From a virus (lineage: Duplodnaviria; Caudoviricetes), in IMG/VR virus record IMGVR_UViG_3300032333_000288, positions 1 to 60,863 of that record: a stretch of DNA of 60,863 nt; one strand, written 5' to 3'. Positions 17,465-58,616 of the stretch are shown here, in pieces. Under the pieces are notes generated by a model. The model was given only the letters and a program-made list of their open reading frames with translations, was not told the origin of the DNA and made no database searches. Numbering within the stretch: position 1 is the stretch's first letter; the number at the start of each line of letters is the position of its first letter. Position numbers and translations under genes: made by a program.

Positions 17465-17488
17465 ATCGAAGCTCGAACATAGATCGGA
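17465..17488 (+). promoter_or_regulatory. Recurrent motif upstream of the lysis cassette
   Basis: atcgaagctcgaacatagatcgga, 21/24 identical to 27382-27405. Confidence 0.65.
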
Positions 17489-27377: not shown

Positions 27378-27405
27378 TACAATCTAAGCTCTAACACAGA
27401 TCGGA
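27378..27405 (+). promoter_or_regulatory. -10-like TACAAT overlapping the recurrent motif, upstream of the ejection-protein genes
   Basis: tacaatctaagctctaacacagatcgga. Confidence 0.6.
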
Positions 27406-35200: not shown

Positions 35201-38200
35201 TCTGAGAGCGTGAACAAATACTACAAGGGGATGTTCACGGCGAAAGTCGAACCCGAATACGACTACGTGGCGGCTGACCGCATCAATACTCAGTTCATCA
35301 AAGCCGTCGGCGCGCGGACTGAAGTCAGCAGCGACGCCGCGAAGATCGCCGTCGGCAAGGGCAAAGAAGAAGCCGTCGCCTTCGTTCAACGGACCCTGGA
35401 CGAGCACCTCAAAGATGGGCCCGAGTCCACGATCTCGCAGGCCGAGTTCGATAAGTGGACAGAGCGCTACGAAAAATTGTTGAGGGCTATCAAAGCCATG
35501 CCGGAAAGCGAGATGCGTCCAAAGCGCATAGACGGGTTCCGAAACGACAAGTCCCCCACCTACGAAGTCTCCGTGAACATCCCGCAGGAGCAGCTCCTGA
35601 ACTGGGACAAGCCGCTGAGCGAGCAGAGCACGAAGATGCAAGAGGTGGCGAAGAAGGTGGCGGGCGAAGGGAAGATCGCAGACCTCTCACTGAAATGGAA
35701 ACAGGACGCCGACGATCTGTACACGGCAACTGACCCCGACACTTTCGCCATCTACACAATCCAGCAAGTCACCCCGAGCAAGTTCATCCTCACCGATGGG
35801 ATCGAAGAGATCGTCGGGATATACAGCTCACTCGAACAAGCGAAGCACGAAGCCGAGAAAGTGACGTTCGCCGGGCCTGACTCCGACAGGAAGATACTCA
35901 ACTACAGGGGCGAAGACTTCTACCGCGCGCTCTCGGACCACTTCGCTCCGGGCGACCGCGACACGGGCGACCGGCAGGCCAGCGACTACCTCCAAGCCGC
36001 TGGCATCCTGGGCCACCGCATGAAGGCCAGCGCCAAGGACGGCACGCAGAATCCAAACTACGTCATCTACGACGACAGCAAAATCACGACGAACTACGTT
36101 CACTTCAACGCCGAGACCGCGACCAAGGTCTCGTCGGACGCCGAAGTGGCCGAAGCCCTTGCCATGCTGAAGAAGACCCTCGGCCCGAAGATCATGGTCG
36201 AGGTCAGCAAGGACTTCCCGAATGCGGGCGAGTACCTCGAAGCTGAGCGGCTCATCAAGTTGTCCACGGTCATCGGCCCAGGCGTGCTCTCCGTGGCGTA
36301 TCACGAGGCACTGCACGACGCCTGGGCCAACGTGCTGAAGAACCACCCCGGCGCACGTGAGGCGCTGAGCAAGGTGATGTCGAGCCCTACCATGCTGGCC
36401 CGTCTTCAGGACAAGCTGGCGAACGAACCCGATGCCCTGGCGGCTATCGCCGACGGTGCGCCGCACGCAGCCGAAGAGCGCGTCGCCTACGCCTACCAGT
36501 TCTGGGCCGCGGGCGAGCTGGACGTGGACAAGCCGGCGACGACTCTGTTCGCAAAATTCCGCAAGATGCTGCGCAAGGTGCTGGGCATGGTGCGCGAGAG
36601 CGAGACCGCGCTCGACATCATGACCGCCCTGCACGACGGCAAGCTGGCTGAGCCCAGCGCTGCCGGGCGCGTGCTCAAGGAGATCATGGCCCGCGAGACC
36701 TGGAACGCGGACGTGAAGCGCAAGTTCGACAAGGTGATCCAGAACAGCTTCGCTGCGATCGCACCGAGCAACGACGTGCTGCGCCGCGAGACCCTCAGCG
36801 GCACGGCCCGGCTGCTGGGCAAGATCATGTTCTCGAACCCGGGCGAAGAGGCTGCGGGCGGCGACCAGGGCTACCTGAACGCACGCAAGCAGAAGATCGC
36901 CCAGTACACGAACTACCTGCACGCAGCCCTGAAGGGGCTGAGCGAGCGCGATCTGGCCGAGGTGGCGAAGCAGCTCCAGCTCAAGACACCTCTGGAGCAG
37001 ATCACCTACGCCCCAGTGCGCGACGCCGTCAAGGGTGTGCGTGCGCTGACGAAGCGGTACTACGAGTACGCCACCCAGAAGTCGCCGCACGGTGAGCCGG
37101 TGCTGAAGCTGGAGTTCCTCGGCGAAGACCACTACCCGCGCGTGTGGGACTTGCGCAAGCTCGTCGACGACGGTGACGGGCAGGCGAAGTTCATCGCCAT
37201 GCTGCTGCAGCCGAAGTACAAGAAGCCCATGGCCGCTGCGATGGCGATGGCGAACGCAGGCCGCAAGGTCATGACCCCCGTAGAGGTGGGCATGGCGATG
37301 GTGCGGGGGGAGAAGATCAACGCCGCATACACCGCCGAGCAGATTGCCCTGAAGATGTACGAGCGCCTCGTCGAGAAGAACGGCGTGGACGACATGTCCG
37401 CGGACAGCGACCGCATGGACGACGAGCTGCTCGACCCGTTCTTCGCCAGCCAGAAGGAGCGCAGCTTCAAGTGGCTGGACGACGCGGATGTGGAGCCGTT
37501 CCTGGACAAGGACGTTGTCTCGGCGATGACCCGCTACCTACACCAAGGCATCCGCGCTGTGGAGTTCAGCCGGCGCTTCGGCGAGCGCGGCAAGTTCCTG
37601 CGCCCGCTGCTGGTTATGAAGGGCGACCCGGTGTTCAACTCCGAGACCGGCAAGGTCGAACCGGCGGAGACCCACGGGCGCATCGCCAGCGAGATGTACG
37701 AGAGCCTGAAGAAGGCCGGCACGAAGGGCAAGGAGGCGGACCTGATCGTCGCCCGGCACATGGACGACGTGCGCAAGGCAGTCGCCGCGCATGAAGGCTC
37801 TCTAGGCCACACGATCAGCCCGACATGGCGCAAGTTCAGCAGCGCGGCGATGGCCTACCAGAACCTGCGCCTGCTGCCGCTGAGCCTGTTCGCTGCGTTC
37901 GGCGACACGATCGGCATCGCAGCACGTTTCGGCGAAGGTGGCGGGAAGCTGGCTTTCCAGGCGTTCACGCAGGGCCTGCGTGACGTGTACGCCCGCTGGA
38001 AGGACGCCGCCAGCGACATGCCGGCTGAGCGCCAGAAGACGGTCTGGGAGAACATCGCCGAGATGGTCGGCGCGGTGGACAGCCACATGCTCCTGGAACA
38101 GATGGGCAACGCTGCTGCCAGCGAGTTCACGACGGACTGGGCACGCAAGGCGAACCGTGCGCTGTTCATGGCGAACGGCCTGACCGCCTGGGACCGCAGC

Positions 38201-38929
38201 ATGCGGGTCTCAGCCACGAAGGCGGCGGTGCTCTTCCTTCAGCACCACGCCAGCCTGCCTGACAAGCAGCACAGCGCCCGCTGGCTCAAGGAGCTGGGGC
38301 TCAAGGTCGAGGACATCCCACTGGATGCCGACGGCAAGCTGATCTACGACCGGCACGTGCTGGCCGCGGAGAAGGGCATCTCCCTGGAGGACGCGACGAA
38401 GCAGGCCGAGAAGGTCCACTACGCCATCACCCGCTGGGTCGAGGGCGCGGTGCTGACGCCGACGGCAGGCCAGCGCCCGACCTGGGCGAGCGACCCACAC
38501 TACGCGGTGCTCTTCCACCTGAAGCAGTTCACGTACAGCTTCCACCACACGATCCTGAAGCGGGCGTTCAACGAGGCGGGCCACGGGAACATGGCCCCGA
38601 TCGGCGCGCTGATGATGGCTGTGCCAACGATGGTGGCTGCGGATCTGGTCAAGGGTGTCGTGGTGGGTGGTGGCTCGCTGCCAGCGTACATGCAGCAGTG
38701 GGACCTGGGCGATCACATGATGCACGGGTTCAACCGCGCCGGCCTGGGCGGCATCGGCCAGTTCGGCATCGACGGGCTGCGCGATCCGTTCAGTGTGCTG
38801 GGGCCGACGGTGCAGCAAGTATCGGAGTTCATCCTGAACCCGCTGGACATCGGGCACAACCTGCACAATGCAGTGCCGGGGGCTCGGTACATCAAGGGGC
38901 TCCCCGATCTGGCACGCGTGGCTGAGTGA
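29276..38929 (+). CDS. Giant internal virion polyvalent protein (SLOG-like, ASCH-like, ADP-ribosyltransferase-like and zincin peptidase domains)
   Basis: 3217 aa. ART-like THDSP/GEG...GAGTYLS/LLNWDKPLSEQ/NYVIYDD; HEALH...EER zincin motif; STMDLIREGVRTATT ASCH-like motif. Confidence 0.8.
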   Translation: MATLRDLVPGLDQSLAGLVPGSGPSPVQQGLRGPATALIEDEAEAAGMGQLRRGFTTGRLQADANALATDESAARAAGDTAAADALRLRIGGLQQRAKTFAPTEQDVTQLDWQPGRILDYGLATMGQGAASMTDPLAVGVGANAAAGVLGLIPHPLAQGGAKALRAGGILGGGYLNYRQNKGEFYNQAVEDPTLLAGRTAQEIDRAGTGHGVVAGALDTALPAWAANRIVPGGTKVLSGLGGGMKAALGLGGEAVTETLQGESKRGILGLLNPQRDTSGDAAERWNDAVGGAIGAAPIVGLSHLGDKANARLGVKDDTSSDDVSGGKTMPGAPKREKLTDSLKRGAAKYTDDDAAEKWNETLQGLHNPDQEVATTEQHAALLKELGGRAAKGDTVAQQHIDALNKLDPADSATWYGAPQRDAAYEHILGDGTDHEKVIEAYKGRKLNAQGGSDTAPVRLAASILSSSLPENADQALHAEAKDIARELASFADVAEGRGKLHDPLKAQGVAQRIADVFPGKTAAALVAKVATAIGVETTPLFKQLQQNLAGAADIANVKKSGRTSRAAVGDQLVALIPASKQLALRNEGIDLTSPAYKAALVDYVEQLGKAISYGATDNKGEPIAVSPSAYAKLTAKVGSEAAVAMLDMVSPGKIIEKESDAPKENGGGTTGPAKESDREGEKRSGGLGDDLEMDDFDIDAAKKSMERAPGAKLYLTKGKRGIATAGDTEGAHPFVRDKKTGNLPKLSLADDTDTKSGFNTLEAMEERAYEMLTGKPWEPLPGDDLKDMETYWTSMQKTVEEGGTKVTRRTTQELSPGQYIKNDDPKAQPVLGIGSFRIRRISAKDVMDDRGVAAGRRTTLLRQYLAQDGVLGEDDRTLTQLATLSRKIRELTDEAQPQPVKRNPQAVPLAGQGVAELEELKAQRTEVIAKLAKKIGVEAKDDATVEDLANAYFGQRFLITAEQMAEKDQLRLNQAEVLAMIRKGNQYINKSTDPTLGPSPVEVQADMNLIRFRSKSAITKSDEKRGIAVIPASELVAWVFANRNDYKGVEGGKESALEYRNALMEGIGALAEGGYMDALPFMINAEGNIERFGSKKHGGFPPSLKLGGMRQADLNEGSKRIVAAIVATDKAEKEILDKMTPKQRAKYEAAAEKKRNDEVARDQEKTEKVKNTDPDELVSEGREHNPKTAARPVAQRSLDLVPPSKGEAGPHPVLMSTPAKEAPPARYWDAPAAEPTEPAAFTNPEFDNPLGTPDRRFVGGTQIQGDLPGMPEAPGPNTGVERPYTTAVGVSRPSQKVDEKRSGRFPVAPETVETRRDNVERTQLDWDLKAQDGGVPTDFTAAQMAKAVADAALTEGETRPLTPTNATARAPALAREILWQLDSFDGLFEGKRVTSDVPADPQGAFQRIQRLVAALSRPVSTTGSRPAGGRHYAAPLALILTPANVKVLISKAQNKAAAGPRLERMRDKVARALLLADDNDLSLAGRVVAARALLGNDALTSATMKAPLKVMADREEKRQADAAADQHLEEVARKAKIAAVQQKRSAKPMQAKTEAPAEVDLFGPTPNGRRALKTASIDTLLNAREKAVNQLRYDDAGVEYNPELDTDAAVILATRVEAPPDDEFSAGVLRAIDAIDHEIKRRRGEVGTQAKTEPAKVKLNGTSAYVAKDQAKADKANKFIGRGSESSSTAQYAKDFGPAANTGTYVSTDRVFVSAEGKREGRVNPDRAELDKAVAAGVTFITDDAPNRERGYNVGERQIAKYLTENGYAETAPGEWMKTEAPAQTQRSVRDMPMNYKDGTNGMRMRPALVGKSTMDLIREGVRTATTGALERFRGLKVGDVFTVVGADDERIQVRMTQNPRPVSELTPSEWATPEGWATVNYAKYKDAWQIKYELVNKPVATEAPAPKLNAMRGPARPTRKLNAMSARIHSELGRAGFPATHDSPIRHEGRFDWREHAMKGEGAMVKGAGTYLSTSESVNKYYKGMFTAKVEPEYDYVAADRINTQFIKAVGARTEVSSDAAKIAVGKGKEEAVAFVQRTLDEHLKDGPESTISQAEFDKWTERYEKLLRAIKAMPESEMRPKRIDGFRNDKSPTYEVSVNIPQEQLLNWDKPLSEQSTKMQEVAKKVAGEGKIADLSLKWKQDADDLYTATDPDTFAIYTIQQVTPSKFILTDGIEEIVGIYSSLEQAKHEAEKVTFAGPDSDRKILNYRGEDFYRALSDHFAPGDRDTGDRQASDYLQAAGILGHRMKASAKDGTQNPNYVIYDDSKITTNYVHFNAETATKVSSDAEVAEALAMLKKTLGPKIMVEVSKDFPNAGEYLEAERLIKLSTVIGPGVLSVAYHEALHDAWANVLKNHPGAREALSKVMSSPTMLARLQDKLANEPDALAAIADGAPHAAEERVAYAYQFWAAGELDVDKPATTLFAKFRKMLRKVLGMVRESETALDIMTALHDGKLAEPSAAGRVLKEIMARETWNADVKRKFDKVIQNSFAAIAPSNDVLRRETLSGTARLLGKIMFSNPGEEAAGGDQGYLNARKQKIAQYTNYLHAALKGLSERDLAEVAKQLQLKTPLEQITYAPVRDAVKGVRALTKRYYEYATQKSPHGEPVLKLEFLGEDHYPRVWDLRKLVDDGDGQAKFIAMLLQPKYKKPMAAAMAMANAGRKVMTPVEVGMAMVRGEKINAAYTAEQIALKMYERLVEKNGVDDMSADSDRMDDELLDPFFASQKERSFKWLDDADVEPFLDKDVVSAMTRYLHQGIRAVEFSRRFGERGKFLRPLLVMKGDPVFNSETGKVEPAETHGRIASEMYESLKKAGTKGKEADLIVARHMDDVRKAVAAHEGSLGHTISPTWRKFSSAAMAYQNLRLLPLSLFAAFGDTIGIAARFGEGGGKLAFQAFTQGLRDVYARWKDAASDMPAERQKTVWENIAEMVGAVDSHMLLEQMGNAAASEFTTDWARKANRALFMANGLTAWDRSMRVSATKAAVLFLQHHASLPDKQHSARWLKELGLKVEDIPLDADGKLIYDRHVLAAEKGISLEDATKQAEKVHYAITRWVEGAVLTPTAGQRPTWASDPHYAVLFHLKQFTYSFHHTILKRAFNEAGHGNMAPIGALMMAVPTMVAADLVKGVVVGGGSLPAYMQQWDLGDHMMHGFNRAGLGGIGQFGIDGLRDPFSVLGPTVQQVSEFILNPLDIGHNLHNAVPGARYIKGLPDLARVAE

Positions 38930-46507: not shown

Positions 46508-46536
46508 TGTAATCTAAGTTCGATCTTAGATGTCGA
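46508..46536 (-). promoter_or_regulatory. Near-palindromic copy of the recurrent motif adjacent to TACACT
   Basis: The - strand reads tcgac-atctaagatcgaacttagat-tacact. Confidence 0.6.
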
Positions 46537-47520: not shown

Positions 47521-49629
47521 TCACTTGCTGTAGTTGAAGGCGTGTCCACCCTCGGAAGACAGCGGGAGGTCTTTGCACCAGTCGAGCGGTACGGTCATGC
47601 GCTTGAGCATCTTGGCCGACGCAGACGACGCCTGAGCCTTCTTGACGCAGGCCACCATCTCGTCGTGCGTGGTCATCACCATGCGCATCGACTTGCTGAG
47701 GTCGAGCATCTGGTACATGACGATGATGCGGGCCAGGGCCTGCACGATGTTCTCGCAGAGGAGACCGCCGTAGATTTTCTTGCGGATGGGCTGGCCCTTC
47801 AGCGTCGAGGCGTAGGTCCACTCGTCCCACCCCTTGTCGCCGACGACCTTTCTCAGGTCGGGGTAATGCAGCCGCATGCCGTTCGGCAACCAGATGCAGT
47901 CTTTCTCCCAGTTCAGTGGGCCGTGGCTGCCTTCGCGGCCAGCAGCCATGTCTTCGATGATGTTGTTGCAGATGTCCCAGCCCTTGGCGATCTTGTCGTT
48001 CTTGCGGCGGTAGGTCTGCACCCAGCGCTTCGCTTCTTCGAGCGTGATGAAGATGGGCGGGCCACCGAGCGCACCCTTCGCCAGGGTGATCTGGAGCTTG
48101 GTTGGCCCCATCTGGAAGCCGAGGCCGAGGGTCAGCACTTTGCCGACGAAGCGCTCAGTCTTGTCGTCCTTGGTGATCGTGCGCCCATAGATGAGCGAGG
48201 CCATCAGGCAGTATGGGTCGGCGCCGGTCTTCGCGTCGCTGGCCTTGAACGCAGCCAGGATGTCGTTCTGCTTCCAGAGCCATGCGTTGACCCGTGCCTC
48301 GATTTGGCCTGAGTCACCGACGGCCAGCTCGTAGCCAGGTGGGGCTTCGATGGACTCGCGCAGGGCGCCGCCACGCTTGAGGTTCTGCAGGTTCCGTTTG
48401 TCGCCGCCGCCCAGCCGGTGCGTGTGCGCGCGGCTGTAGGCGTAGTAGGCGGGCAGAGTGCCATGCTTCGCTGAGGTCAGCATGCGCTCGGCGCGGGTGA
48501 TGTTCGTCGTGCTCTTGACGGCAATACGGGTGTCCACGAGCAGGCGCAGACGCTCGGACTTTGCTGTCATCTGCTTGATGCCCTCCGTGGTGTTCACGTC
48601 GGGCACAGCCGTCCAGCGCGTGGTGTCGTCAGGCAGGTTGACGAACTCCACGTCATCCTTGGCAAAGGCATAGGCCCATTTGCCGTCTTCGTCAGCCTCA
48701 CGCGCAGCTTTGTCCTTCTTCATCCAGGCTGGGCTGAGCTTGACCGGCGGGTCCACGCCTTCTGCGATCAGCAGATCGGCGAAGCGGTTCGTGCTGCCCA
48801 CGATGCGCTTGACGATCAGAATGTCGCGCTCCTTGCCTTCGAGTGCGCGTTCGACCTTTGTCTTGAGCACGGTCTTGTCGGTGTAGAACGGCTTCGGGTC
48901 GAGCACGGAGAGGAAGAGGGTCTCGCGTTCGGCCAGCTCGCGCGCCAGCTCGGCTTCGACGCGGGCCACGTTCACACGCAGGACCGGCTCGCAGAACATG
49001 CGGACCAGCACGTCGATGAGGTCGATCTCTTCGCTGGGCAGCGCGTAGACCATCTCTTGGAATACGCGCAGAGTCTCGTCGCCGTCGTTCAGGCAGTACG
49101 TCGAGGCTTCGGCATAAAGGGCCGGCGACCAAACGAGAATGCCTTTGGTCTTTTCGAGTACGTCGTGAATCTTGCCTGCTCCGCCGTAGAAGACTGAGAC
49201 CTCATCCAGGCCGGCGCCGATTTCGTTGGAGTGGATGCCGCGGGCCATGGACAGAGTGTCGTAATAGAAACTCGGAACCACACCGTAGTGGTGGCTGAGA
49301 ATGAGGCCGTCGAATTGGGTGTGGTGGCAGAGCAGGCCATGGGTGCCCCAGTTGATCTTGCGGAGTTCGGCTTTGATCTTGTTCGGCGGGATGATGCGGG
49401 CCGGCTTCAGGCCGACCTTCAGATACATCATCTGCGCCTTGAAGCGCGGGTCGCGGACGTATTCGGAAGTGGACAGTTTGGAAAGCGTGTAGTCCTGGTC
49501 GTAGTAGGTTTCTATGTCTACTACAACGAGTCTGTTCCAATCAACTTCTTTGGCTTGAAATGCAGGGCGGGCAAAATCCGGAGCGATGCGGCTAGTGACC
49601 TTACGAAGAGTGTTTTGCCAAGCGTTCAT
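47521..49629 (-). CDS. polA: Family A DNA polymerase with 3'-5' exonuclease domain
   Basis: Exo I VDIETYY; NLQNL; motif A DSGQIEAR; motif B RFVGKVLTLGLGF; ENIVQALAR; motif C HDE. Confidence 0.95.
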   Translation of the reverse strand: MNAWQNTLRKVTSRIAPDFARPAFQAKEVDWNRLVVVDIETYYDQDYTLSKLSTSEYVRDPRFKAQMMYLKVGLKPARIIPPNKIKAELRKINWGTHGLLCHHTQFDGLILSHHYGVVPSFYYDTLSMARGIHSNEIGAGLDEVSVFYGGAGKIHDVLEKTKGILVWSPALYAEASTYCLNDGDETLRVFQEMVYALPSEEIDLIDVLVRMFCEPVLRVNVARVEAELARELAERETLFLSVLDPKPFYTDKTVLKTKVERALEGKERDILIVKRIVGSTNRFADLLIAEGVDPPVKLSPAWMKKDKAAREADEDGKWAYAFAKDDVEFVNLPDDTTRWTAVPDVNTTEGIKQMTAKSERLRLLVDTRIAVKSTTNITRAERMLTSAKHGTLPAYYAYSRAHTHRLGGGDKRNLQNLKRGGALRESIEAPPGYELAVGDSGQIEARVNAWLWKQNDILAAFKASDAKTGADPYCLMASLIYGRTITKDDKTERFVGKVLTLGLGFQMGPTKLQITLAKGALGGPPIFITLEEAKRWVQTYRRKNDKIAKGWDICNNIIEDMAAGREGSHGPLNWEKDCIWLPNGMRLHYPDLRKVVGDKGWDEWTYASTLKGQPIRKKIYGGLLCENIVQALARIIVMYQMLDLSKSMRMVMTTHDEMVACVKKAQASSASAKMLKRMTVPLDWCKDLPLSSEGGHAFNYSK

Positions 49630-50054
49630 GTTTTGTTTCGTGAATTGGGCGTAAAGACTGCGTCGTACGTCAGTGTGTTTCGCCTGTGTCGCCAGAGGCG
49701 ATGGTGTAGAGTCGTCGGCAGAATTCGTAGCTTTTCGGCCCACTCCCAAGTCTTGAGCGTCTGCCCTCGGTATGTAATGTTTAGGGTGTAGTTGCGGTTT
49801 CGAGATTGAGTTCGTTTGTCGGCCCAGCGGCAGTTGTTTCTTGAGTAGCTGCGTTTGTTGTCGCGACGATCTAAAGTTGTTCCGTCAGGACGAAGACCCA
49901 TTGACGCTACAAAACCTTCATAGGTAAGCCACGATGAGGGAACAGTGATTCCTCTTGCACCGTAATAGGCAAAGTCTGTCGCGTTCGGGTTGAGGCAGCG
50001 GTTTTTCATCATCTGCCAAGACCGATAAGTAGGCTGATGTACGTTCTTCTTCAC
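49626..50054 (-). CDS. Free-standing HNH homing endonuclease
   Basis: SWQMMKNRC.NP...YYGARGI...TLDRRDN...YSRNNCRWA; lower GC than neighbours. Confidence 0.85.
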   Translation of the reverse strand: MKKNVHQPTYRSWQMMKNRCLNPNATDFAYYGARGITVPSSWLTYEGFVASMGLRPDGTTLDRRDNKRSYSRNNCRWADKRTQSRNRNYTLNITYRGQTLKTWEWAEKLRILPTTLHHRLWRHRRNTLTYDAVFTPNSRNKT

Positions 50055-51457
50055 ACCGCTGCCTCCTTCGCCGGGCGTTTGATCCTGTACGCCCCGGCAG
50101 TCAATGTCTCGAACATGCCGAGCAGGTTCGCCATGCGAGCGCCCTTGCCCATGCAGTTTGTGTAGGCCCAAGCGTCGGCCTCGCAGTCCTCGGCCAGGAT
50201 GACGATGGTCTCGGTCTTCTGCGTCTGGCCAATGCGGCGCTGGCGTGAGGATGCCTGAATGAACAGGGCGGTGTCGTGCGTGGGCGAGGACCAGATCGTC
50301 GAGGTGCCACGGGTCAGAGTCTGCCCGTGGCCGACAGTTTTCGGGTGAGCGAACAGGGCGTCGAACTCGCCGTTCTGGTAGCGCTGCACGTAGGCTAGGC
50401 GGTCAGCGTCGCTGGTGCCGCCGTCGAAGACTGCGTACTTCAGGCCGCGCTTGTCGACTTCAGCGACGAGCAGATCACGCTGGTGCTTCCACATGAACAA
50501 CACGAGCGGATGTACACGCTGTTCGACCAGGTCGAGGATCATCTCGTAGCGCCCAGTGTCGATGACATGGTACTGGTCAGGCGACGAGTAGACCGCACCG
50601 CTGGCGACTTGGAGTAGCTTTGTGGCCACAGCAGCAGCGTTGATGGCGGTGATGCCACCAGCCTTGCCCAGGTTCAAGAGCTGGGTCGCGGCCATCTCTT
50701 CATAGGCTCGGCGCTGAGTTGCCGACATCGTGTAGCTCAGCGTGTACTGGTGGTTCTCAGGGATGTCGGCGCAGTCGTCGAGCCGGTGGCGAATCGTGAT
50801 GTCGGAGAGCAGGCTGAACACTGCTTCTTCGGCACCGTCCTTGTCCTGCCACTCGATCATCTTCGAGCCGTGGCCGACCTGGACGGGCGTGCACACGGAC
50901 TGACGGAAGGGGAAGTACAGCTTGCCCAGGCGAGCGCCGCCATCGAGCAGCAGGGCCTGGTGCCATACGTCTATGATCGTGCGGCTGTTGGGCGTCGCAG
51001 TCATTGCGGCGCGGTAAGTGAAGTGCTTGACGATCTTGAAGATGGCTTTCGAGCGCTGGCTGTTGTAGTGCTTGAAGGCGTCGCTCTCATCCATGATGAT
51101 CTCGCTGAAGCGGGCGAAGAACGCCTTCGGCTGCTTGGCGAGCCAGTTCACGGCATCATGGTTCGTGATGTAGGCGTCGGCCTTCGTGGCGAACGCCTCG
51201 GCGCGGTTGTTGGCGTTAGCGACGACGGTCTTCAGGCCAGGGGCGAACTTCTTGAAGTCCGCGGCCCACACGGAGCGCAACGTGGAGCGGATGCCGATGA
51301 CGAGGGCACAGCCACCGCCTTTCTTGCGGCGTTTCTCGAAGGCCCAGATGCGCACAGCAGTCTTGCCTGTGCCGGCGTCGCTCATGTCGAAGACGATGGG
51401 CGTCTTGTCGTTGTGCTTGAGGCTGACGACCTGGTGCTTGAATGGCTTGTAGATCAT
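50051..51457 (-). CDS. SNF2-family helicase
   Basis: GTGKT, IMDESD, MTATP, GHGQTL, QASSRQRRIGQ. Confidence 0.9.
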   Translation of the reverse strand: MIYKPFKHQVVSLKHNDKTPIVFDMSDAGTGKTAVRIWAFEKRRKKGGGCALVIGIRSTLRSVWAADFKKFAPGLKTVVANANNRAEAFATKADAYITNHDAVNWLAKQPKAFFARFSEIIMDESDAFKHYNSQRSKAIFKIVKHFTYRAAMTATPNSRTIIDVWHQALLLDGGARLGKLYFPFRQSVCTPVQVGHGSKMIEWQDKDGAEEAVFSLLSDITIRHRLDDCADIPENHQYTLSYTMSATQRRAYEEMAATQLLNLGKAGGITAINAAAVATKLLQVASGAVYSSPDQYHVIDTGRYEMILDLVEQRVHPLVLFMWKHQRDLLVAEVDKRGLKYAVFDGGTSDADRLAYVQRYQNGEFDALFAHPKTVGHGQTLTRGTSTIWSSPTHDTALFIQASSRQRRIGQTQKTETIVILAEDCEADAWAYTNCMGKGARMANLLGMFETLTAGAYRIKRPAKEAAV

Positions 51458-51744: not shown

Positions 51745-51995
51745 GAGGTGATCCTCTCGGTGACGCGTTGAAGCTGGTACGCATCGATCAGCTTCTGGCA
51801 GGCAGCGTCAGGGTCGTCGAGACCAGTGTTCATCTTCAGCCAGGCAAGTTCACTTGCCTGGATGCCTTCATGGTTGTGGAGGCGAATGAGCAGGCTGGCG
51901 GCGAAGCCGCCTGCATAGGCGACGAACTGATCAGACTGCTCGACCTCGACGAAGTCTTTGGTGACGCCGGCCTCGTTCTCGCCCCAGACACTCAT
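51741..51995 (-). CDS. Hypothetical protein
   Basis: GGAG RBS; ATGA overlaps at both ends. Confidence 0.6.
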   Translation of the reverse strand: MSVWGENEAGVTKDFVEVEQSDQFVAYAGGFAASLLIRLHNHEGIQASELAWLKMNTGLDDPDAACQKLIDAYQLQRVTERITS

Positions 51996-52696
51996 CGCTG
52001 CACTCCGACCTGGCATTGCCCCCCGTTCCACGGCCCGTACTGGCACCACTTGCACGAGTACACGTTCGGGTTGGGCGGGAAGTCGGTGCAGTCGGTGACC
52101 GCGTGACCGCGGCGGTCGAAATTCGGCTTGAAGCGCAGAATTTGCGCGCGGGTGAAGGTAGCAGAGGTCAGCTCCTTCACGTCGAGATACCACAGCTCGG
52201 TGGTGACCTCTTCGATCTCGGGGTAGCGCAGCACGGCGTTGAGGGCGTAGAGCTGGGTCTGCTCAGCGTGTTTGACCTCGTTGCCGAAGCGCTTGCCTGA
52301 CTTGTAGTCGATGACGATGGCTGAGTGCTTGTTGGGCAGCACGATGGCGTCCACCTTCGAGCGGTGCCAGCCGGTGCGCCAGTCCGTTGGCATCCAGTCC
52401 CGGTCTACGGCCCATTCGCCTTCGAGGCTGACGATGCCGGAAGGGTAGAGGCGGCGGAGGTGGTCGAACTCCTGGGCGAACTCGCGCATCTCAGGGATCT
52501 GGGCATCTACCTTGCCGGTGACGTAGTCTTCAGCGTGCTGGTGGATGCGGGTGCCGCGGTCGTTGGCGTGCTCGGTCTGACCAGGCTTGAGGGGGCGTTC
52601 AGGTTCGGGGATTTTCTGGTCGTGCTTGAGCCAGGCCAGGAACTTGCACTTCTCGAAGTCGCCGAGCTTCGAGTGACTCCAGCTTGAGATGGTCAT
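51992..52696 (-). CDS. Cas4/RecB-like PD-(D/E)XK exonuclease
   Basis: WSHS...C, GTRIH, KVD...IDYKSG, QTQLY, C-terminal CKWC...C. Confidence 0.9.
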   Translation of the reverse strand: MTISSWSHSKLGDFEKCKFLAWLKHDQKIPEPERPLKPGQTEHANDRGTRIHQHAEDYVTGKVDAQIPEMREFAQEFDHLRRLYPSGIVSLEGEWAVDRDWMPTDWRTGWHRSKVDAIVLPNKHSAIVIDYKSGKRFGNEVKHAEQTQLYALNAVLRYPEIEEVTTELWYLDVKELTSATFTRAQILRFKPNFDRRGHAVTDCTDFPPNPNVYSCKWCQYGPWNGGQCQVGVQR

Positions 52697-52735: not shown

Positions 52736-53395
52736 CAGAGCGCCCGACTCTTCAAATTCGTAGGTGCTGTCTGAGAAGAATTCGTCGATGTGCTCGTCGG
52801 AGGTGAGGTAGTCGTTCTCAGCTTTGAGCTGGGAGTAGATCCAGTCGGCGAAGGCGCGCATGAGGCGAGTGAGTTCTGCGTCGTCCTTGATGTCTGGGCT
52901 GACACCATCTTCTTCGTCGACGTACGTGACATCGACATCCATCGTGTGTGAATGATAATATCCAGAACCACCAAGTTTGATGGTTGCTTCGAGCAGTCGC
53001 CCATGTTTGAGTCGGGTTGAGACTTGAAGCAGAGCGAGCTGTTCGGCGATTCGATGAAGTTCGCTATCTGTGACGAACTCGTTAGCGATTTGATCGACAG
53101 CTTCGGACCCAGATCTGGGCGAGTACCGCCCTTCAAACGAAGCACCGTCGCCCTGGCTACAAAAACCACTGAAGTAGATGCGGGGGTCAAGACGAACATT
53201 GCCGTTTCGTAGCGTGACGGGCTTGGTGTCGATGGTGATGCCGAGCACCTCTGCTGCTTCAACCGCTTGCTCATAGACAGCATCCCACCAGTCGTAATGG
53301 AGGTCGTGGTCTCGGTACGCGTCGCGTGCGCGTTCCTTCGCCTTGTCACTCGGCTCGTCGAACTTGTAGACCGTGCGCTCGATGATGCAGGGCAT
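52730..53395 (-). CDS. Acidic phage hypothetical protein
   Basis: VYKFDE.SD.AKE...IYFSGFCSQGDGASF...WIY..L..E.DY pattern; AGGAG RBS. Confidence 0.75.
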   Translation of the reverse strand: MPCIIERTVYKFDEPSDKAKERARDAYRDHDLHYDWWDAVYEQAVEAAEVLGITIDTKPVTLRNGNVRLDPRIYFSGFCSQGDGASFEGRYSPRSGSEAVDQIANEFVTDSELHRIAEQLALLQVSTRLKHGRLLEATIKLGGSGYYHSHTMDVDVTYVDEEDGVSPDIKDDAELTRLMRAFADWIYSQLKAENDYLTSDEHIDEFFSDSTYEFEESGALI

Positions 53396-53403
53396 GGCTC
53401 CTC

Positions 53404-54510
53404 CTACACGTCAATCTTGATCGTTTCGCCAAAGGGCGCGACCACGTCGGTGGTCATCACCCACATGACGGGGTAAGGTGGTGGCTCCTTCGGGAATGGT
53501 CCCTCACCGTCGGTGAGGTAGATGAAGCAGGCCGGCTTGAGGTCGTTCTTCTTGACGTACTCGAACGGCGGGCGGAAGTCCGTACCGCCACGACCAGGCA
53601 TCTTGAATTCGGGCACCTGGTACTCGTCGTACGTGTCCACCTTCTGCACGCGCGCGTCGCAGTAGATGTTGACCATCTCTTGCGGCTTGGCCATCAGCTT
53701 GATGGCGTTAATCTCGCTACCGAAGGCGTCGAGCTGGAACTGATCGACGGAGCCGCTGGTGTCGATGCTGTTGATGATGCGGCCCATGGCCTCGTTGTGC
53801 AGGCTCGGCAGGTAGTAGCCGAAGGGCACCATGCGGCGTTGTGGCCGGCTCCAGGAGAAGTCGGTCTTCGCGTGCAGCATGGCGAAGCGGCGCAAGCGCT
53901 CGCGCCAGTTCAGTTTGCCGCTGGTCAGCTTCTCGACGAAGCTGGTCATCGAGCCGGGCAGTTTGCCCTGCTTCTTCGCCTCGGTCGCAGCCTGAATGCC
54001 GGCGATCTTCCACTCGACAGCATTCGCTTCAATGGCCGAAGGGTCGCCGGGCTTGAGTGAATCGAGCGCGCCTTGACCCTTACCATTCTTCGCGCCGCCG
54101 CCGGGCGGCATGTCAGGCAGCAAGGTGTAGATGTGATCGGCGGACATGCCATCGAAAGCCTGGTCGTAGAGCCAGGTCTCGCCGATCTTCATGCCGTCGT
54201 TCTTGATGTTCGCGTTGACGACGTAGTCGATGGCGTGATTCCACTTGTCGGGATCGCGCGGGCCGCAGCGGTCGATGTGATCGAGCAGTGCATGCTGGAC
54301 TTCGTGGCAGACCGCCGACATCTGGAGTTCTTCGTCGAGTTCGAGGAAGAACGTGGGGTTGTAGTAGATGGTCGTATTGCTCACGCACAGCGTCTTGATT
54401 GACGGGTCCTCTTCAATCGCCAGGCGCAGGGCCAGGATGCCGTAGAACGGCTGGTCGATGTAGAGCGCCGTGCGGGCACGAATCATCGCAGTGTGAGCAG
54501 CCTTGTTCAC
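53404..54510 (-). CDS. DUF2201-type metallopeptidase plus vWA domain protein
   Basis: HEVQH zincin motif, WNHAIDYVVN, MIDAS DTSGS, GGTDF, LTDG. Confidence 0.9.
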   Translation of the reverse strand: MNKAAHTAMIRARTALYIDQPFYGILALRLAIEEDPSIKTLCVSNTTIYYNPTFFLELDEELQMSAVCHEVQHALLDHIDRCGPRDPDKWNHAIDYVVNANIKNDGMKIGETWLYDQAFDGMSADHIYTLLPDMPPGGGAKNGKGQGALDSLKPGDPSAIEANAVEWKIAGIQAATEAKKQGKLPGSMTSFVEKLTSGKLNWRERLRRFAMLHAKTDFSWSRPQRRMVPFGYYLPSLHNEAMGRIINSIDTSGSVDQFQLDAFGSEINAIKLMAKPQEMVNIYCDARVQKVDTYDEYQVPEFKMPGRGGTDFRPPFEYVKKNDLKPACFIYLTDGEGPFPKEPPPYPVMWVMTTDVVAPFGETIKIDV

Positions 54511-55340
54511 TGGTATGCCTTCATCTTGGCCAGGATGGCGTCCGCGGCGTCTGCGGTCTTGGTGCGGGTCTGGGCGTTGGCGCGCAGCGCGTTCGGGCTG
54601 GGCAGCATGGCGTCCAGTTCTTGGCGCAGCTCTTCGAGGATCGGATCGCCGGTGAGGTTGAGTGCTGGCAGGCAGGCCACCAGGTCACGAGCATTCGTGA
54701 TCAGGGTGTCGAAGATGCGCGGATCTTCCTTGCGCAGCGTAGTGCTGATGTGGCCGACGACATCCTGCACGCGCGTGTAGCACTCACGCATAGCCGCTTG
54801 GAACTTGGCGTCGTTCTCGGCAGTGAGTTGTTCACGGATCAGCGCTGTGGCCTCGTCGCCTACGTTGACGCGGAAGTCGTCGGCGCTGGGGATGGGCTTG
54901 AGGCTGATGCGGATGTCGAACTTGTCCGCGATCTGAGCGACCGTCGGGAAGTCCTTGGGGTTGTAGAGCGTGCCCAGGCGCTTCGGCGCAGCAGCCAGAA
55001 GCTGCGGATAGAGCGCGACGAAGTCCTTGCGAAGCTTCTCGTCGGCCAGGCGCATGTGCTTGATGCCTGACGTGTACTCCTGGTACAGGGCTGACGGCAG
55101 GAGCCGGTCGCTGTTGTTATCCCACGGCAAGGTCAGCTTGTTGTGGAACGCGCGCATGGCGCTCGCGCTGGCCGTGAGCGGCTTGAGGTGGGCACGGTCC
55201 ACGAGGGTCTTGCGGAAGTCGCCGCTGTCGCTCGTGGCGTTGTGGGCTTGGGTCACTTCACGAGTGACCTTGCTGTCGATGCGCTGTGCTGTCCACCGGG
55301 AGATGGACAGATTGGCGAGCATGGCTTTGTTTTGCAGCAT
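54507..55340 (-). CDS. Helical partner of the AAA/vWA pair (DUF3150-like)
   Basis: Position in the operon, TLPW...RLLP motif, AAGGAG RBS. Confidence 0.65.
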   Translation of the reverse strand: MLQNKAMLANLSISRWTAQRIDSKVTREVTQAHNATSDSGDFRKTLVDRAHLKPLTASASAMRAFHNKLTLPWDNNSDRLLPSALYQEYTSGIKHMRLADEKLRKDFVALYPQLLAAAPKRLGTLYNPKDFPTVAQIADKFDIRISLKPIPSADDFRVNVGDEATALIREQLTAENDAKFQAAMRECYTRVQDVVGHISTTLRKEDPRIFDTLITNARDLVACLPALNLTGDPILEELRQELDAMLPSPNALRANAQTRTKTADAADAILAKMKAYQ

Positions 55341-55356
55341 GTGGACTCCTTATTGG

Positions 55357-55619
55357 GTGCGGTCTCTCCCGCCGTCACACGAAATTTCTTGTGCTGTTGC
55401 TTGACGTAAGGGTTGGCTACCTTCTCGCCTCACACTGGTGAATCGTGTATTACCGCTGCTAGGGTGGGCGAACTGCACAGTGCTGGGGAGCGGTCCTACC
55501 GACTCACTGTCACGGCACCCGTTGTTAAGGGATGCTGGAGATTCGTTCCGGCTTCAGCCAGACTCGCCCCTACGTGCTCAGGTCTTCGATCCGCTATAGC
55601 AGGGTGTGCAGTTCACCCA
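55357..55619 (-). ncRNA. Candidate structured RNA
   Basis: 15-bp closing stem (55605-55619 with 55465-55479) plus nested hairpins. The stem mismatches are G-U pairs only on the - strand. Confidence 0.55.
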
Positions 55620-55625
55620 TTGAAC

Positions 55626-56231
55626 TTAATTTCGTTGCGCTCCGACTGGAGTGAGACAAGCGTCTTTGATTGACCAGCCCATCCTCAGACGAGTGATGAT
55701 TAGCGTGTCGCAGCCACCAAGTTCCCGTGTCCAATCGATCATCAGTTGTGTGCGTCCGCCGGCGGTGAGCTTGCGGTTGTGGCGAGTATTGCGATGCTGT
55801 TCGAGGGGCGTAGCCCAGTAGCAGTTGGCTGGGCTGTAGTCCTTGTTGTTGTTCCGTCGGTCAATAGACGTATTCGGCGGACGCTCTCCCATGTCGTGAA
55901 GGAACAATTCAAAGTCATCCCACCGTTTGCAGACCTTGATGCCACGTCCACCGTAGTGTTTGAAGTCTTTTGACCGTGGGTTGTTGCAACGATCACGCAT
56001 GTTCGTCCACACCCTGTGCAGTGGCGAGCCAGTCAGACCATGTGTACGGCGGATGCAGCCGCACGAAGTTACTGCTCCTGTTCGCAGGCTTTTGCTATCA
56101 GTCGTTTTGAACTTGAAGCAACTGCAAAGACAGATCCAAGATACTCGGCCGTTGTAATGAGGGGCCTGGGCCACAACGGTTAGACGGCCGAAAGTCTCGC
56201 CTACGAGATGGACGGGGTCAGACATATGCAC
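55626..56231 (-). CDS. HNH homing endonuclease
   Basis: FGRLTV...WICLCSC...SCGC, WTNMRDRC, YGGRGIKVC, SIDRRNN...YSPANCYWAT; lower GC. Confidence 0.85.
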   Translation of the reverse strand: MHMSDPVHLVGETFGRLTVVAQAPHYNGRVSWICLCSCFKFKTTDSKSLRTGAVTSCGCIRRTHGLTGSPLHRVWTNMRDRCNNPRSKDFKHYGGRGIKVCKRWDDFELFLHDMGERPPNTSIDRRNNNKDYSPANCYWATPLEQHRNTRHNRKLTAGGRTQLMIDWTRELGGCDTLIITRLRMGWSIKDACLTPVGAQRN

Positions 56232-56278
56232 CTCTAAGTTAGAGCTTAGAGTGTAAGACAGAAAAGGTAGGAGCGCAA
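56232..56278 (-). promoter_or_regulatory. Sigma70-like promoter with the recurrent motif over the start site
   Basis: TTGCGC-N17-TACACT followed directly by ctaagctctaacttagag. Confidence 0.65.
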
Positions 56279-56286
56279 ACCCCCAA

Positions 56287-57462
56287 CTACACGAGAATGT
56301 CTTGATTCGCCAATCCCCATTTTGCGTACCTCCCCGTGCTCAGGATGTTCTTGTCGCGCGCCGTGGCGGCGCGGACGAAGGCCACCTGGATCTCGCGGCT
56401 CAGCCGTTCGACGTAGTCCATGACACGGTCGAAGTTGCTGGCCTTGGTCTTGTCGCTCAGCGTCATGACCACCGCGTGGGTGACAGGCGTGGAGCCCGGC
56501 AGTTGTGCACGCTTCGGATCCATCATGATGCTGTCGATGTCAGGCATGTCCTTGATGTCGCGGACGAAGCCGGTGAACTCGCCAGCGGCGCCTTCACCCA
56601 CGGTGCCCTTGATCAGCTCGAACTTCTCACCGGCGGTGTAGTCGCGCTTGTAGATGCGGTCCACGCCGTACCAGGCGCGCGGCGTCGGGAAGCAGCGCGG
56701 GTTCGCCGTGGTGTCGAAGGCGTGCAAAGCGTGGGTTTTCAGCTTGATGAAGGCACGGATGTGCGGGTGAATATCGTCGTCCGCTGCACGCATCAGCCAG
56801 TCGGTGGAATCCACCTCGTAGTCGATGTGCAGGAAGCGGTTCGCCAGCGGCGCGGCCATCTGGTACGTGATGCCTCGGTCGCCCTGATTGTTGCCAGCGG
56901 CCACGATGCTCCAGTTGTCGGGCAGTTCGTACTGGCCGATGCGGCGGTCGAGGATGAGCTGGTAGCAGGCGCTGGCCACAGCGGGCATGCCTCCGTTCAT
57001 CTCGTCGAGGAACAGGACACCAGGAGCGTCGCCCTTGCGCGGCAGGAAGTCGGCGGGCAACCACTCCATCTGCTTCTTCTTCGTGTCGGGCATGGGGAAG
57101 CCGCGGAGGTCGATGCTGTCGAGCTGGCTCACGCGCACATCGGCGAGTGAGCGCTTCGTGGCCTGAGCGATCTGGCTGACGACGCTGGACTTGCCGGCGC
57201 CCGACGGCCCCCAGATGAAGACGGGTTGCCGATCGTCGAGTAGCTTAGGGAGGACATGAGCAAGAATGGAGGGTTTCACGGATTTGGTTTCCTTGGGTGG
57301 GTTGTAGGTGGCGACGAGATAGCCGATGCCGAAGAACAGTGCGGCGACGAAAGCGAAGGTGCCGACGACGATCAGCAGCAGAACGCGGAATTGCTTGGTG
57401 CGGGACAGGGGAAGGAAGAGAGGCCGGCCGATTTCTTCCTCGTAGCTTTGGTTTTGGTTCAT
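56287..57462 (-). CDS. MoxR-like AAA+ ATPase with in-frame N-terminal TM extension; internal GTG start at 57279
   Basis: Walker A GPSGAGKS, Walker B LFLDE, AAGN, ANRF, TPRAW. Confidence 0.9.
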   Translation of the reverse strand: MNQNQSYEEEIGRPLFLPLSRTKQFRVLLLIVVGTFAFVAALFFGIGYLVATYNPPKETKSVKPSILAHVLPKLLDDRQPVFIWGPSGAGKSSVVSQIAQATKRSLADVRVSQLDSIDLRGFPMPDTKKKQMEWLPADFLPRKGDAPGVLFLDEMNGGMPAVASACYQLILDRRIGQYELPDNWSIVAAGNNQGDRGITYQMAAPLANRFLHIDYEVDSTDWLMRAADDDIHPHIRAFIKLKTHALHAFDTTANPRCFPTPRAWYGVDRIYKRDYTAGEKFELIKGTVGEGAAGEFTGFVRDIKDMPDIDSIMMDPKRAQLPGSTPVTHAVVMTLSDKTKASNFDRVMDYVERLSREIQVAFVRAATARDKNILSTGRYAKWGLANQDILV

Positions 57463-57503
57463 AGGCTACTCTTTGTTGTCAAGTGGGTTGGTGTACCACT
57501 GCA

Positions 57504-58043
57504 TTAAAAATCTCCCGACGCTACCTGGGCGCAGACGATGCCGTTGCGCCGCCACATATCGACGACGCGCTGGCGGTCGTCGAACACCATGACGAGGCGA
57601 GCGCGGTCTTCGGGGCTCATGGCGTGGAGCCAGGATTCCTTGAGCTGGTCATCGGGCGTGTAGTCGCCGGCGGGGCGCATCTTGACCAGCATATCGAACG
57701 GACCTGTGTACTTAAGGGAGACGTTCTGGTCAATCCAATCGAGTGTTTGTTCCCGCACAGTTTCCATGCGGCCTGACCAGATCCAAATCTCGGTCTTGAG
57801 ACAAGACAACGCCCAAACGATGTTAATGACCGGCTGAATCGGCGTATCGCCCACGCACGCGGCGTGGAAGGCGTCCCAGTTGGGCTTGAATGGGTGTTTG
57901 GCGCCACAAATGCACGTCGCTCGATCATTCGAGTTCCAGCAGGACAGACACCTGACACTTGGCCGCTCAACGAAGTGCCGGCGATGCTTCAGATCCGCGA
58001 GCGTGCCGTCGAGGTCGAAGATGTAGAGGGGTGTGGTGTTCAT
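57504..58043 (-). CDS. HAD phosphatase (PNKP 3'-phosphatase-like) with Cys-rich insert
   Basis: FDLDGT, SGR, MR...D...K, FDDRQRVVDMWR; insert CLSC...CIC. Confidence 0.85.
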   Translation of the reverse strand: MNTTPLYIFDLDGTLADLKHRRHFVERPSVRCLSCWNSNDRATCICGAKHPFKPNWDAFHAACVGDTPIQPVINIVWALSCLKTEIWIWSGRMETVREQTLDWIDQNVSLKYTGPFDMLVKMRPAGDYTPDDQLKESWLHAMSPEDRARLVMVFDDRQRVVDMWRRNGIVCAQVASGDF

Positions 58044-58171
58044 GACGCCGTCCGAAGTTTGTGGTTCATGCATTTGACATGGTTGACTGCGTTCCACCAG
58101 TCGCGCGCGTTGACGGGCTGTTTGTCGGAAGTGACGTGCCAGCGACCGCGTTTGAAGTAGAAGCGAATCAT
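58040..58171 (-). CDS. Small hypothetical protein (43 aa, MIRFYFKRGRW...)
   Basis: AAGGAAG RBS; ATGA overlaps at both ends. Confidence 0.5.
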   Translation of the reverse strand: MIRFYFKRGRWHVTSDKQPVNARDWWNAVNHVKCMNHKLRTAS

Positions 58172-58404
58172 GCTTCCTTCTTCCTCTCGCCACGTTGACG
58201 CGCAGGGCGTGCATCTGCCAGCCGGTCCAGTGGAATCTCGACGCCGCCACGATGCACGAAGACAGCGTAGGGCCCGGCCTGCCGGCGCGCTGCGCGGATG
58301 ATGCGGTATGCCAGTTCGGCGGTGCCTGCCAGGGTGGTGTACGTCCAGCGCTGCACCAGGGTGCCGTAGGGGCGGTGCAGTTCGACCACGTAGGGTGCGC
58401 TCAT
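58168..58404 (-). CDS. Hypothetical protein
   Basis: ATGA-coupled ORF. Confidence 0.5.
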   Translation of the reverse strand: MSAPYVVELHRPYGTLVQRWTYTTLAGTAELAYRIIRAARRQAGPYAVFVHRGGVEIPLDRLADARPARQRGERKKEA

Positions 58405-58616
58405 GGTTGACCCTTCACCCACGCTATTGCAGCCAATACCCTGGCGTTGTGAGCTCCGTATTCCGCAAGAATCTCGGCGCGCGTCTGGTCGCTTTGGCCG
58501 TACTTTTGCGCCATCTGTTCGGGTGTGCAGTTCCTGAACGCAGCGCGGGCGCGGTACAGGTCATCGCCGAGCATTTGCTCCAGCGCTCGAATTGCTAGTT
58601 GCTTATGTTCGTTCAT
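58401..58616 (-). CDS. Hypothetical protein
   Basis: GAGGAGGG RBS; coupled ORF. Confidence 0.65.
   Translation of the reverse strand: MNEHKQLAIRALEQMLGDDLYRARAAFRNCTPEQMAQKYGQSDQTRAEILAEYGAHNARVLAAIAWVKGQP

Follow-up and report, generated by a model that had tools for sequence, protein, structure and literature searches.

The minus strand of a wastewater phage carries, at the junction between two genes of a protein-coding operon, a stretch of 163 nt (55462-55624) that folds into a long-range 15-bp stem closing a multibranched interior. Substitutions among the known copies preserve this pairing on the minus strand only, the element is found both with and without the HNH gene that adjoins it here, and its ends carry a motif that recurs in three other stem-closed modules of related loci. 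We propose, tentatively and with somewhat less than even confidence, that the stretch is a self-contained RNA module that is co-transcribed in the operon and may be cut out by RNase P, with 3′ trimming at ACCC, to release an RNA, a reading drawn from the sequence and its comparison with known substrates.

Genomic Context

The window, that is, the whole stretch of DNA analysed here, comprises a complete IMG/VR record of 60,863 bases, with the genome estimated to be 91% complete. From about 40 kb to the end, its minus strand forms an arm of replication-type genes that includes a DNA polymerase (47521-49749), an SNF2 helicase (50051-51457) and a PD-(D/E)XK nuclease (51992-52696). Further along on the same strand are a gene for a polynucleotide kinase/phosphatase-type protein (57504-58250) and one for an AAA_5 (MoxR-like) ATPase (56287-57462), upstream of the element, followed downstream of it by a gene for a 277-aa protein (54507-55340) and by a gene for a DUF2201_N metallopeptidase-like and VWA-like protein (53404-54510). 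The 277-aa protein has no Pfam match, and a homologue in Synechococcus phage MinM2, which is 31% identical, is annotated as a DUF3150 protein. Literature listings for DUF3150 and DUF2201 had nothing that bears on the RNA element. Cultured phages with genomes of 70-78 kb have ATPases that share about 30% identity with the AAA ATPase, and there is no close cultured phage. As listed, the AAA ORF has 391 aa; its relatives, of 330-342 aa, begin to align at residue ~55-62, and the start codon actually used probably lies further downstream. On the other strand, only the last ~360 residues of a giant ORF of 3217 aa (29276-38929, plus strand) match a PHROG “virion structural protein”.

The region under study is the 285 nt (55341-55625) between the HNH ORF (55626-56231) and the 277-aa gene, whose AAGGAG ribosome-binding site lies at 55346-55351 and whose ATG is at 55340-55338. 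An earlier note, made from the letters of the window alone, had placed a candidate structured RNA in exactly this position and had seen no convincing ORF in it. The lack of a conserved ORF is borne out: all sense frames are stopped, no antisense frame is open in all three known copies, and the spacer has no similarity to a small ORF that is present at the same junction in other relatives. That ORF, of ~65-83 aa with the pattern ...Y.THT.AL.G....L..MR..., is conserved in the AAA/277-aa spacer of L003, L014, L018, L029, L030 and L084, and probably of L004, L005 and L045, and is absent in the window, L002 and L013; the L003 copy has no Pfam match.

The element begins 1-8 nt past the upstream stop codon (in the window and in L002), and no promoter-like or terminator-like site is found at 55341-55625 (nine terminator-like sites were found in 53000-58500). 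An intrinsic terminator was considered and rejected, as there is no U-tract hairpin and the closing helix is followed by ACCCUAG. With no promoter or terminator of its own, and abutting the flanking cistrons, any discrete RNA must come from processing. The sRNA that the earlier note had suggested is open as a reading solely in the form of a processed product. Contigs from RNA libraries cover the entire region, with a higher depth in bins 55500-55699 in one of them (X16), and such contigs show neither transcript ends nor transcript levels.

Fold of the Element

On the minus strand, UGGGUGAACUGCACA (55619-55605) pairs with UGUGCAGUUCGCCCA (55479-55465) to form the closing helix P1, of 15 bp with one U·G pair, as had been described. 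Past P1, the minimum free energy (MFE) fold extends by way of UGCU/AGCA and then AGCGG/CCGCU to a multibranch that has the hairpins UCUGGC..GCCGGA and GCAUCC/GGGUGC, all of which had been predicted. The hairpin CCUG/UAGG, which had been predicted along with them, is in neither the MFE nor the consensus fold; in both, CCUG is paired with CAG, and CACG with CGUG. P1, P2 and P3 make up a near-continuous rod of ~25 bp. The G·U pairs that had been pointed out in the stems occur in several helices, and the window sequence has five of them when placed on the consensus structure. The core module as a whole consists of the 5-nt leader UUCAA, 53 pairs in eight helices and an ACCC tail (55462-55465) directly 3′ of P1, whose counterparts are ACCC in L002 and ACCA in L013a.

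The whole 285 nt had been taken to be structured, and this holds for the 5′ 163 nt but not for the 3′ ~120 nt, which are missing or replaced in relatives. The core (55460-55625) has an MFE z score of -2.96, with 1 of 200 shuffles equally stable, while the 3′ part (55341-55464) has a z score of -0.49 and is not significantly structured. Taken together, the 285 nt have a z score of -1.56 and are matched by 13 of 200 shuffles; the folding signal is modest and limited to the core. The L002 copy of the core has a z score of -2.29, and the antisense of the window core one of -1.86.

These values leave room for the view that the fold is a chance product of a GC-rich spacer like any other, and that its hairpins seem meaningful only through the close kinship of the relatives. 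There are 40 inverted pairs of at least 13 nt, at most 400 nt apart, in the window, and the 15-nt inverted repeat alone is not unusual; since inverted repeats of such length are common here, a single sequence proves little. The z score of the whole 285 nt and the fact that the copies represent only about two independent lineages also fit this view. The z score of the core stands against it, and so does the way in which substitutions are distributed, for which reason we consider a chance fold quite unlikely.

Conservation of Pairing and Strand

The distribution of substitutions was assessed on the MFE fold of the window sequence alone, by re-placing the observed substitutions randomly on positions with the same base in 20000 trials. 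A placement test of this kind that uses the consensus fold is circular, and the version with the window-only fold avoids the circularity. Between the window and L002, 52 of the 53 pairs are kept despite 15 substitutions, which random placement equals in 0.63% of trials (P 0.006). For L013a, 51 of 53 pairs are kept despite 18 substitutions (equalled in 0.58%), but L002 and L013a are nearly alike and not mutually independent, so that the result is essentially that of one comparison. The same test on the antisense fold gives 48 of 54 pairs kept and a P of 0.98, no better than chance. The earlier note had argued from the G·U pairs that selection acts on the minus-strand RNA, and the pairing is indeed kept on this strand only.

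In the consensus fold, the pairs that differ between the copies include six one-sided changes of the wobble type and one compensatory change (C-G to U-A or the reverse) in AGCGG/CCGCU. A contig variant from three wastewater DNA runs has 3 differences from the window inside the element: the U·G pair at 55469 in P1 becomes U-A, one change falls in a single-base bulge, and the only A·C of the consensus fold becomes A-U. A column-shuffle covariation test on the three sequences reached the observed score in 174 of 500 shuffles; formal covariation has no power here because the known copies are three, plus the one contig variant. The interior of the multibranch, ~125 nt long, has a mean column identity of 96%. 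Since the substitutions preserve pairing, and do so on the minus strand only, a structured RNA on that strand is supported for the 5′ 163 nt. The data set is thin, but selection probably acts on the sense-strand structure.

The HNH Gene as a Recent Insertion

The HNH ORF encodes a homing-endonuclease-type protein of 201 aa that matches PHROG 374 (E 2.8e-57) and PHROG 3377, with no match in Pfam or NCBIfam. It lies on a cassette of ~627 nt, at about 55627-56253, the limits of which come from a contig joint (55626 to 56254): one metatranscriptome contig skips 55627-56253 and retains the element. In three other runs, DNA contigs run continuously through the HNH gene and the element. Among the 90 sequences searched, the window alone has an HNH protein at the AAA/277-aa junction, and neither of the two related loci that carry the element, L002 and L013, has the gene. 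The HNH gene thus came in recently, on a cassette that inserted at the 5′ edge of an element already in place.

The suggestion that the RNA is a partner of the HNH protein is refuted by these HNH-less copies, as is the co-occurrence with the HNH gene that would go with it. A partner or guide RNA of the HEARO or omega-RNA kind, or a part of an HNH-carrying intron, would be expected to adjoin such a gene, as the element does, but this adjacency is seen in the window only. The HNH protein is a small homing-type enzyme and not IscB-like, no HEARO or intron model matches at E values up to 10, and no gene is interrupted. This reading is extremely unlikely. As a class, HEARO/omega RNA resembles the element in being a structured RNA that adjoins an HNH-domain gene; it was rejected because of the copies in L002 and L013 and for want of an Rfam match at E <= 10. 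A group I or group II intron was likewise rejected, as the element lies between complete ORFs and matches no intron model, the HNH ORF is no part of the fold, and DNA that lacks the HNH gene still has the element.

At the head of the cassette is a palindromic motif, TCTAAGCTCTAACTTAGA (56233-56250, minus strand), one of four sites in the window. The palindrome, TCTAAG-N-TCTAAC-TTAGA, has 6 matches at 4 places (17466-17483 and 27383-27400 on the plus strand, 46513-46530 on both strands, and 56233-56250 on the minus strand), where shuffled sequences lead one to expect 0. A similar copy is found in an intergenic stretch of the related phage L181, the record that contains L002. The palindrome may be a phage-specific promoter or operator.

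In ~160 nt of the 277-aa gene, at its 5′ end (55103-55260), the wastewater contigs differ from the window at 24 positions, compared with 3 in the RNA element and 0 in the HNH gene. The stretch looks like a recombination patch.

Relatives and the Variable Junction

Related loci were gathered with two anchors. The 277-aa protein and its alignment retrieved 6 viral and 4 metagenome loci, and the alignment of the AAA protein retrieved 80 viral and 80 genome loci, all of the latter at most 42% identical; a single-protein AAA query had the L002 contig as its sole match. The core element, at ~91% identity, directly follows the AAA gene in one viral contig (L002) and in one metagenome contig (L013). 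In L002, it begins 8 nt past the AAA stop and ends ~20 nt ahead of the next ATG and ~12 nt ahead of GGAG. The layout in L013 is the same, with the addition of a second, shorter stem-closed module (L013b) that lies between two copies of TCACCCACC. The phage itself is common in public data from wastewater and sludge: among the matches listed, 20 runs from 12 studies, mostly of these materials, contain the window or part of it.

Outside this small group, the searches came back empty. A covariance model of the element (R1), run on 72 sources (the window and 71 viral or metagenome loci, 463 kb), found only its own three input sequences, and a match in L053 at E = 2 covers the terminal helix only. 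An 18-mer scan of viral contigs found the L002 contig as the sole other carrier, and a pattern of the termini with a 40-70-nt gap had no match in viral contigs. Matches to the 5′ motif that remain in five related phage records fall within coding sequence. The 401 sampled Pseudomonadota genomes yielded just chance matches of 24-32 nt, three single genomes yielded none, and no named phage was matched by the 285 nt in blastn. The module is part of the phage backbone in a small clade and not of the HNH gene.

The 3′ part of the region is a variable, weakly structured spacer (55350-55461) outside the conserved element. Its 113 extra nt in the window are missing from L002 and L013, being replaced by module b in the latter, and are not stem-closed; contig X16 skips 55350-55462 (joint 55349 to 55463), and the wastewater contigs have indels at 55406-55422. 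The hairpin GCGG-GAGAGA-CCGC that had been singled out does exist within this spacer (55372-55359) and is followed by ACCC, but L002 lacks the segment, L013 has another in its place, and the wastewater contigs skip it or carry indels in it.

This variability bears on the suggestion that the element is a cis-regulatory leader or riboswitch for the 277-aa gene. The element does stand upstream of the ribosome-binding site, and in L002 it ends close to GGAG, but neither the distance to the ribosome-binding site nor the sequence in between is conserved, given the extra nucleotides in the window and the extra module in L013. None of the predicted folds, whether of the 285 nt or of the core, pairs with the downstream ribosome-binding site, and there is no Rfam riboswitch match; the riboswitch or cis leader was rejected as a class for its variable inserts and the lack of such a match. 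A leader function is very unlikely.

The AAA/277-aa junction is itself highly variable. In 7 of 48 related loci, the spacing between the two genes is 0-13 nt (the lengths are approximate, being taken from the ends of tblastn alignments), which indicates that the operon can do without the element. Elsewhere, the junction is occupied by small ORFs, larger ORFs, repeats or structured modules. The L014 spacer has a fold z score of -0.46. In L011 (~2790-2840), the spacer has seven tandem CCCTAAC repeats, which are telomere-like, followed by a possible 51-aa ORF. In L018 (~4100-4400, or ~580-880 of the spacer), there is a long run of GGC-TAC, GGC-AAC and GGC-GAC that would encode a Gly-Tyr/Asn/Asp repeat protein and is flanked by two near-identical segments of ~45 nt. 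Just upstream of the 277-aa homologue of L006 (~3828-3934) is a stretch that resembles a tRNA, with GGGUUCGAUUCCC looking like a T-arm and with GCCA at its end. ARAGORN calls it a tRNA-Val(GAC) with a 25-nt intron at relaxed thresholds only, which is doubtful; neither default ARAGORN nor Rfam detects it, and the z score of its fold is +1.07. Outside L006, relaxed ARAGORN gave meaningless calls only.

A junction of this kind might be an insertion hot spot, and the element a selfish or neutral insertion, either a palindromic MITE-like sequence or a decayed RNA gene. What would make such an insert tolerable is its closing stem, which would hold the upstream stop and the downstream start near one another in space and so preserve translational coupling. 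The modules are all stem-closed, and they are gained and lost as exact units, as in the case of L013b, which L002 lacks. Correia and REP-like elements have terminal inverted repeats, are co-transcribed, and are present or absent among close relatives. The element is like them in having terminal inverted repeats, in being co-transcribed and in its varying presence between relatives, but it is unlike them in being present in single copy with no target-site duplication seen and in having conserved interior helices. The same single copy, with no others in the rest of the 72 sources, and the lack of a visible target-site duplication led to the rejection of a MITE or Correia-like repeat as a class. 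An insertion of the more general sort is also opposed by the outcome of the searches in the Pseudomonadota genomes, by the fact that substitutions spare the interior helices as well as the closing stem, and by the extra 113 nt of the window, which no stem closes. We regard it as unlikely.

The Ends of the Module

The element of the window has the ends UUCAAU|GGGUGAAC...GUUCGCCC-ACCC, in which the closing helix starts with G after U. Three further modules end in a similar way: L013b with UUCAAU|GGGUGACG...CGUCACCC-ACCC, and two modules of the related locus L005 with UUCAAC|GGGGGUGG...CCACCCCC-ACCC (L005-1) and CC|GACCCAAAAG...CUUUUGGGUC-ACCC (L005-2). The interiors of these three cannot be aligned with that of the window, yet each closing helix starts with G and is followed by ACCC. 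The L005 structures stand at the same junction and have z scores of -2.41 and -4.83; the second of them (3860-3961) is a stem-closed structure of three hairpins that lies directly after the first and is matched by 0 of 200 shuffles. In both L013 and L005, the modules stand in tandem with short spacers. The four modules with the common end motif may share ancestry.

The motif is also seen in two RNAs of E. coli. The ffs gene, which encodes pre-4.5S RNA, has the ends CUCAAU|GGGGGCUC...GGGCCCCC-ACCC, and valT has GGGUGAU...AUCACCC-ACCA. In the window, a 7-bp helix of the acceptor type, GGGUGAA/UUCGCCC with G1-C72, is followed by A and CCC, and in L013a by ACCA. All of the sequence determinants of RNase P are present: U55619 would be position -1, where U is preferred, and G55618 position +1 of the acceptor-like end, G55618 pairs with C55466, and A55465, at the “discriminator” position, is followed by C55464 and C55463. 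U-1 is able to pair with A73, and the tail may then be read as CCC. The end motif is a resemblance noticed post hoc. A generic scan for a helix of at least 10 bp followed by ACC gave 146 matches on the operon strand and 160 on the opposite strand in 913 kb of loci; with similar numbers on both strands, the argument from the end motif rests on its recurrence in four modules, each time at the closing helix.

The features recognised by bacterial RNase P are N-1, the pair G+1/C+72 and a 3′ RCCA motif, and pre-4.5S RNA is a natural substrate for which the tRNA-specific contact with the S-domain is dispensable, according to the review PMC11143913. The reference list of the same review has the C4 RNA of phages P1 and P7 and polycistronic operon mRNAs among the substrates (PMC11143913).

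The closing helix of the element ends like a tRNA acceptor or pre-4.5S RNA (U-1 | G+1 ... C, then A, C, C), which makes RNase P cleavage the most likely mechanism for its release. The module would be transcribed within the mRNA of the AAA ATPase, 277-aa and VWA operon, host RNase P would cut at U55619|G55618, and the 3′ end would be trimmed at the ACCC tail. The outcome would be a stable RNA of ~155 nt, freed from an operon transcript that is severed between its cistrons. Cleavage by RNase P, and any function of the released RNA, are what we infer from the form of the ends.

The same structure might also act in the mRNA with no functional RNA being freed, as an intercistronic stability or processing structure in which the P1-P2-P3 rod would be a target of RNase III or would hold up 3′ exonucleases. 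The rod would then protect the upstream message (AAA or HNH) and set the ratio of upstream to downstream products. This is possible, though rather doubtful. It accords with co-transcription of the element, with its start 1-8 nt after the upstream stop and with the lack of a promoter or terminator of its own, and also with the near-continuous rod and with the two very stable stem-closed structures of L005 at the same place; the strand-specific conservation of pairing fits it equally well. It leaves unexplained the conserved interior of the multibranch and the ACC(C/A) tail on modules with quite different stems. To our knowledge, phage RNase III sites are simple hairpins, unlike the multibranched element.

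Comparison with Known RNA Classes

The earlier note had not recognised the family, and the Rfam scan that it called for confirms that none fits: Rfam 15 has 0 matches in the window at the gathering thresholds and 0 in 55200-56400 at E <= 10, and nothing relevant turned up at E <= 1 in six related loci. Default ARAGORN finds 0 tRNA or tmRNA genes in the window, and at relaxed settings it makes no sense-strand call for the element. A tRNA or tmRNA was rejected, as there is no cloverleaf, T-loop or anticodon arm and no Rfam tRNA or tmRNA match.

Pre-4.5S RNA offers the closest likeness at the ends. Both RNAs have a long terminal helix built from their two ends, with UCAAU ahead of a 5′ strand rich in G and ACCC after a 3′ strand rich in C, and the window element thus shares the terminal helix of SRP RNA, with its G-run, C-run and 3′ ACCC. 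The element is unlike pre-4.5S RNA in lacking SRP domain IV, in being multibranched instead of a single rod and in lying inside a protein-coding operon, and its cleavage is only putative. SRP (4.5S) RNA was rejected as a class, as there is no Rfam SRP match at E <= 10 and domain IV is not found.

The resemblance to E. coli tRNA-Val(UAC) comprises the six acceptor-stem pairs of GGGUGA.../...UCACCC, the discriminator A and CC (in the comparison with L002 and L013). The tandem modules of L013 and L005, with their short spacers, recall the tRNA genes and arrays of phages, from which the element differs in having no cloverleaf, T-loop or anticodon arm. The C4 RNA of P1 and P7 and the intercistronic mRNA sites, which appear as titles in the reference list of PMC11143913, would be like the element in that the proposed RNase P cut falls at an acceptor-like helix within a longer transcript; they are not known to be homologous to it in sequence or structure.

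Implications

One further step, which is speculative and improbable, would be that this clade of wastewater phages carries, within its MoxR-type ATPase/VWA operon, arrays of non-tRNA RNAs capped by an acceptor-like helix and ACC(A/C), which host RNase P would excise and which would act in trans, possibly as decoys or competitors for those host enzymes that bind tRNA acceptor ends, or as substrates of the phage's own repair enzyme of the polynucleotide kinase type, encoded two genes upstream.

Whichever outcome applies, release by RNase P or a structure that stays in the mRNA, the idea of an RNA partner for the HNH protein can be dropped. Should the element be no more than a stability hairpin or an insert that is tolerated, there is nothing unusual in finding it at so variable an intergenic junction. 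If it is released by RNase P, it would be a phage RNA that is new and unclassified and that leaves its protein-coding operon by means of the tRNA-processing machinery of the host; L013b, L005-1 and L005-2 would then point to a small family of RNAs capped in this acceptor-like way.
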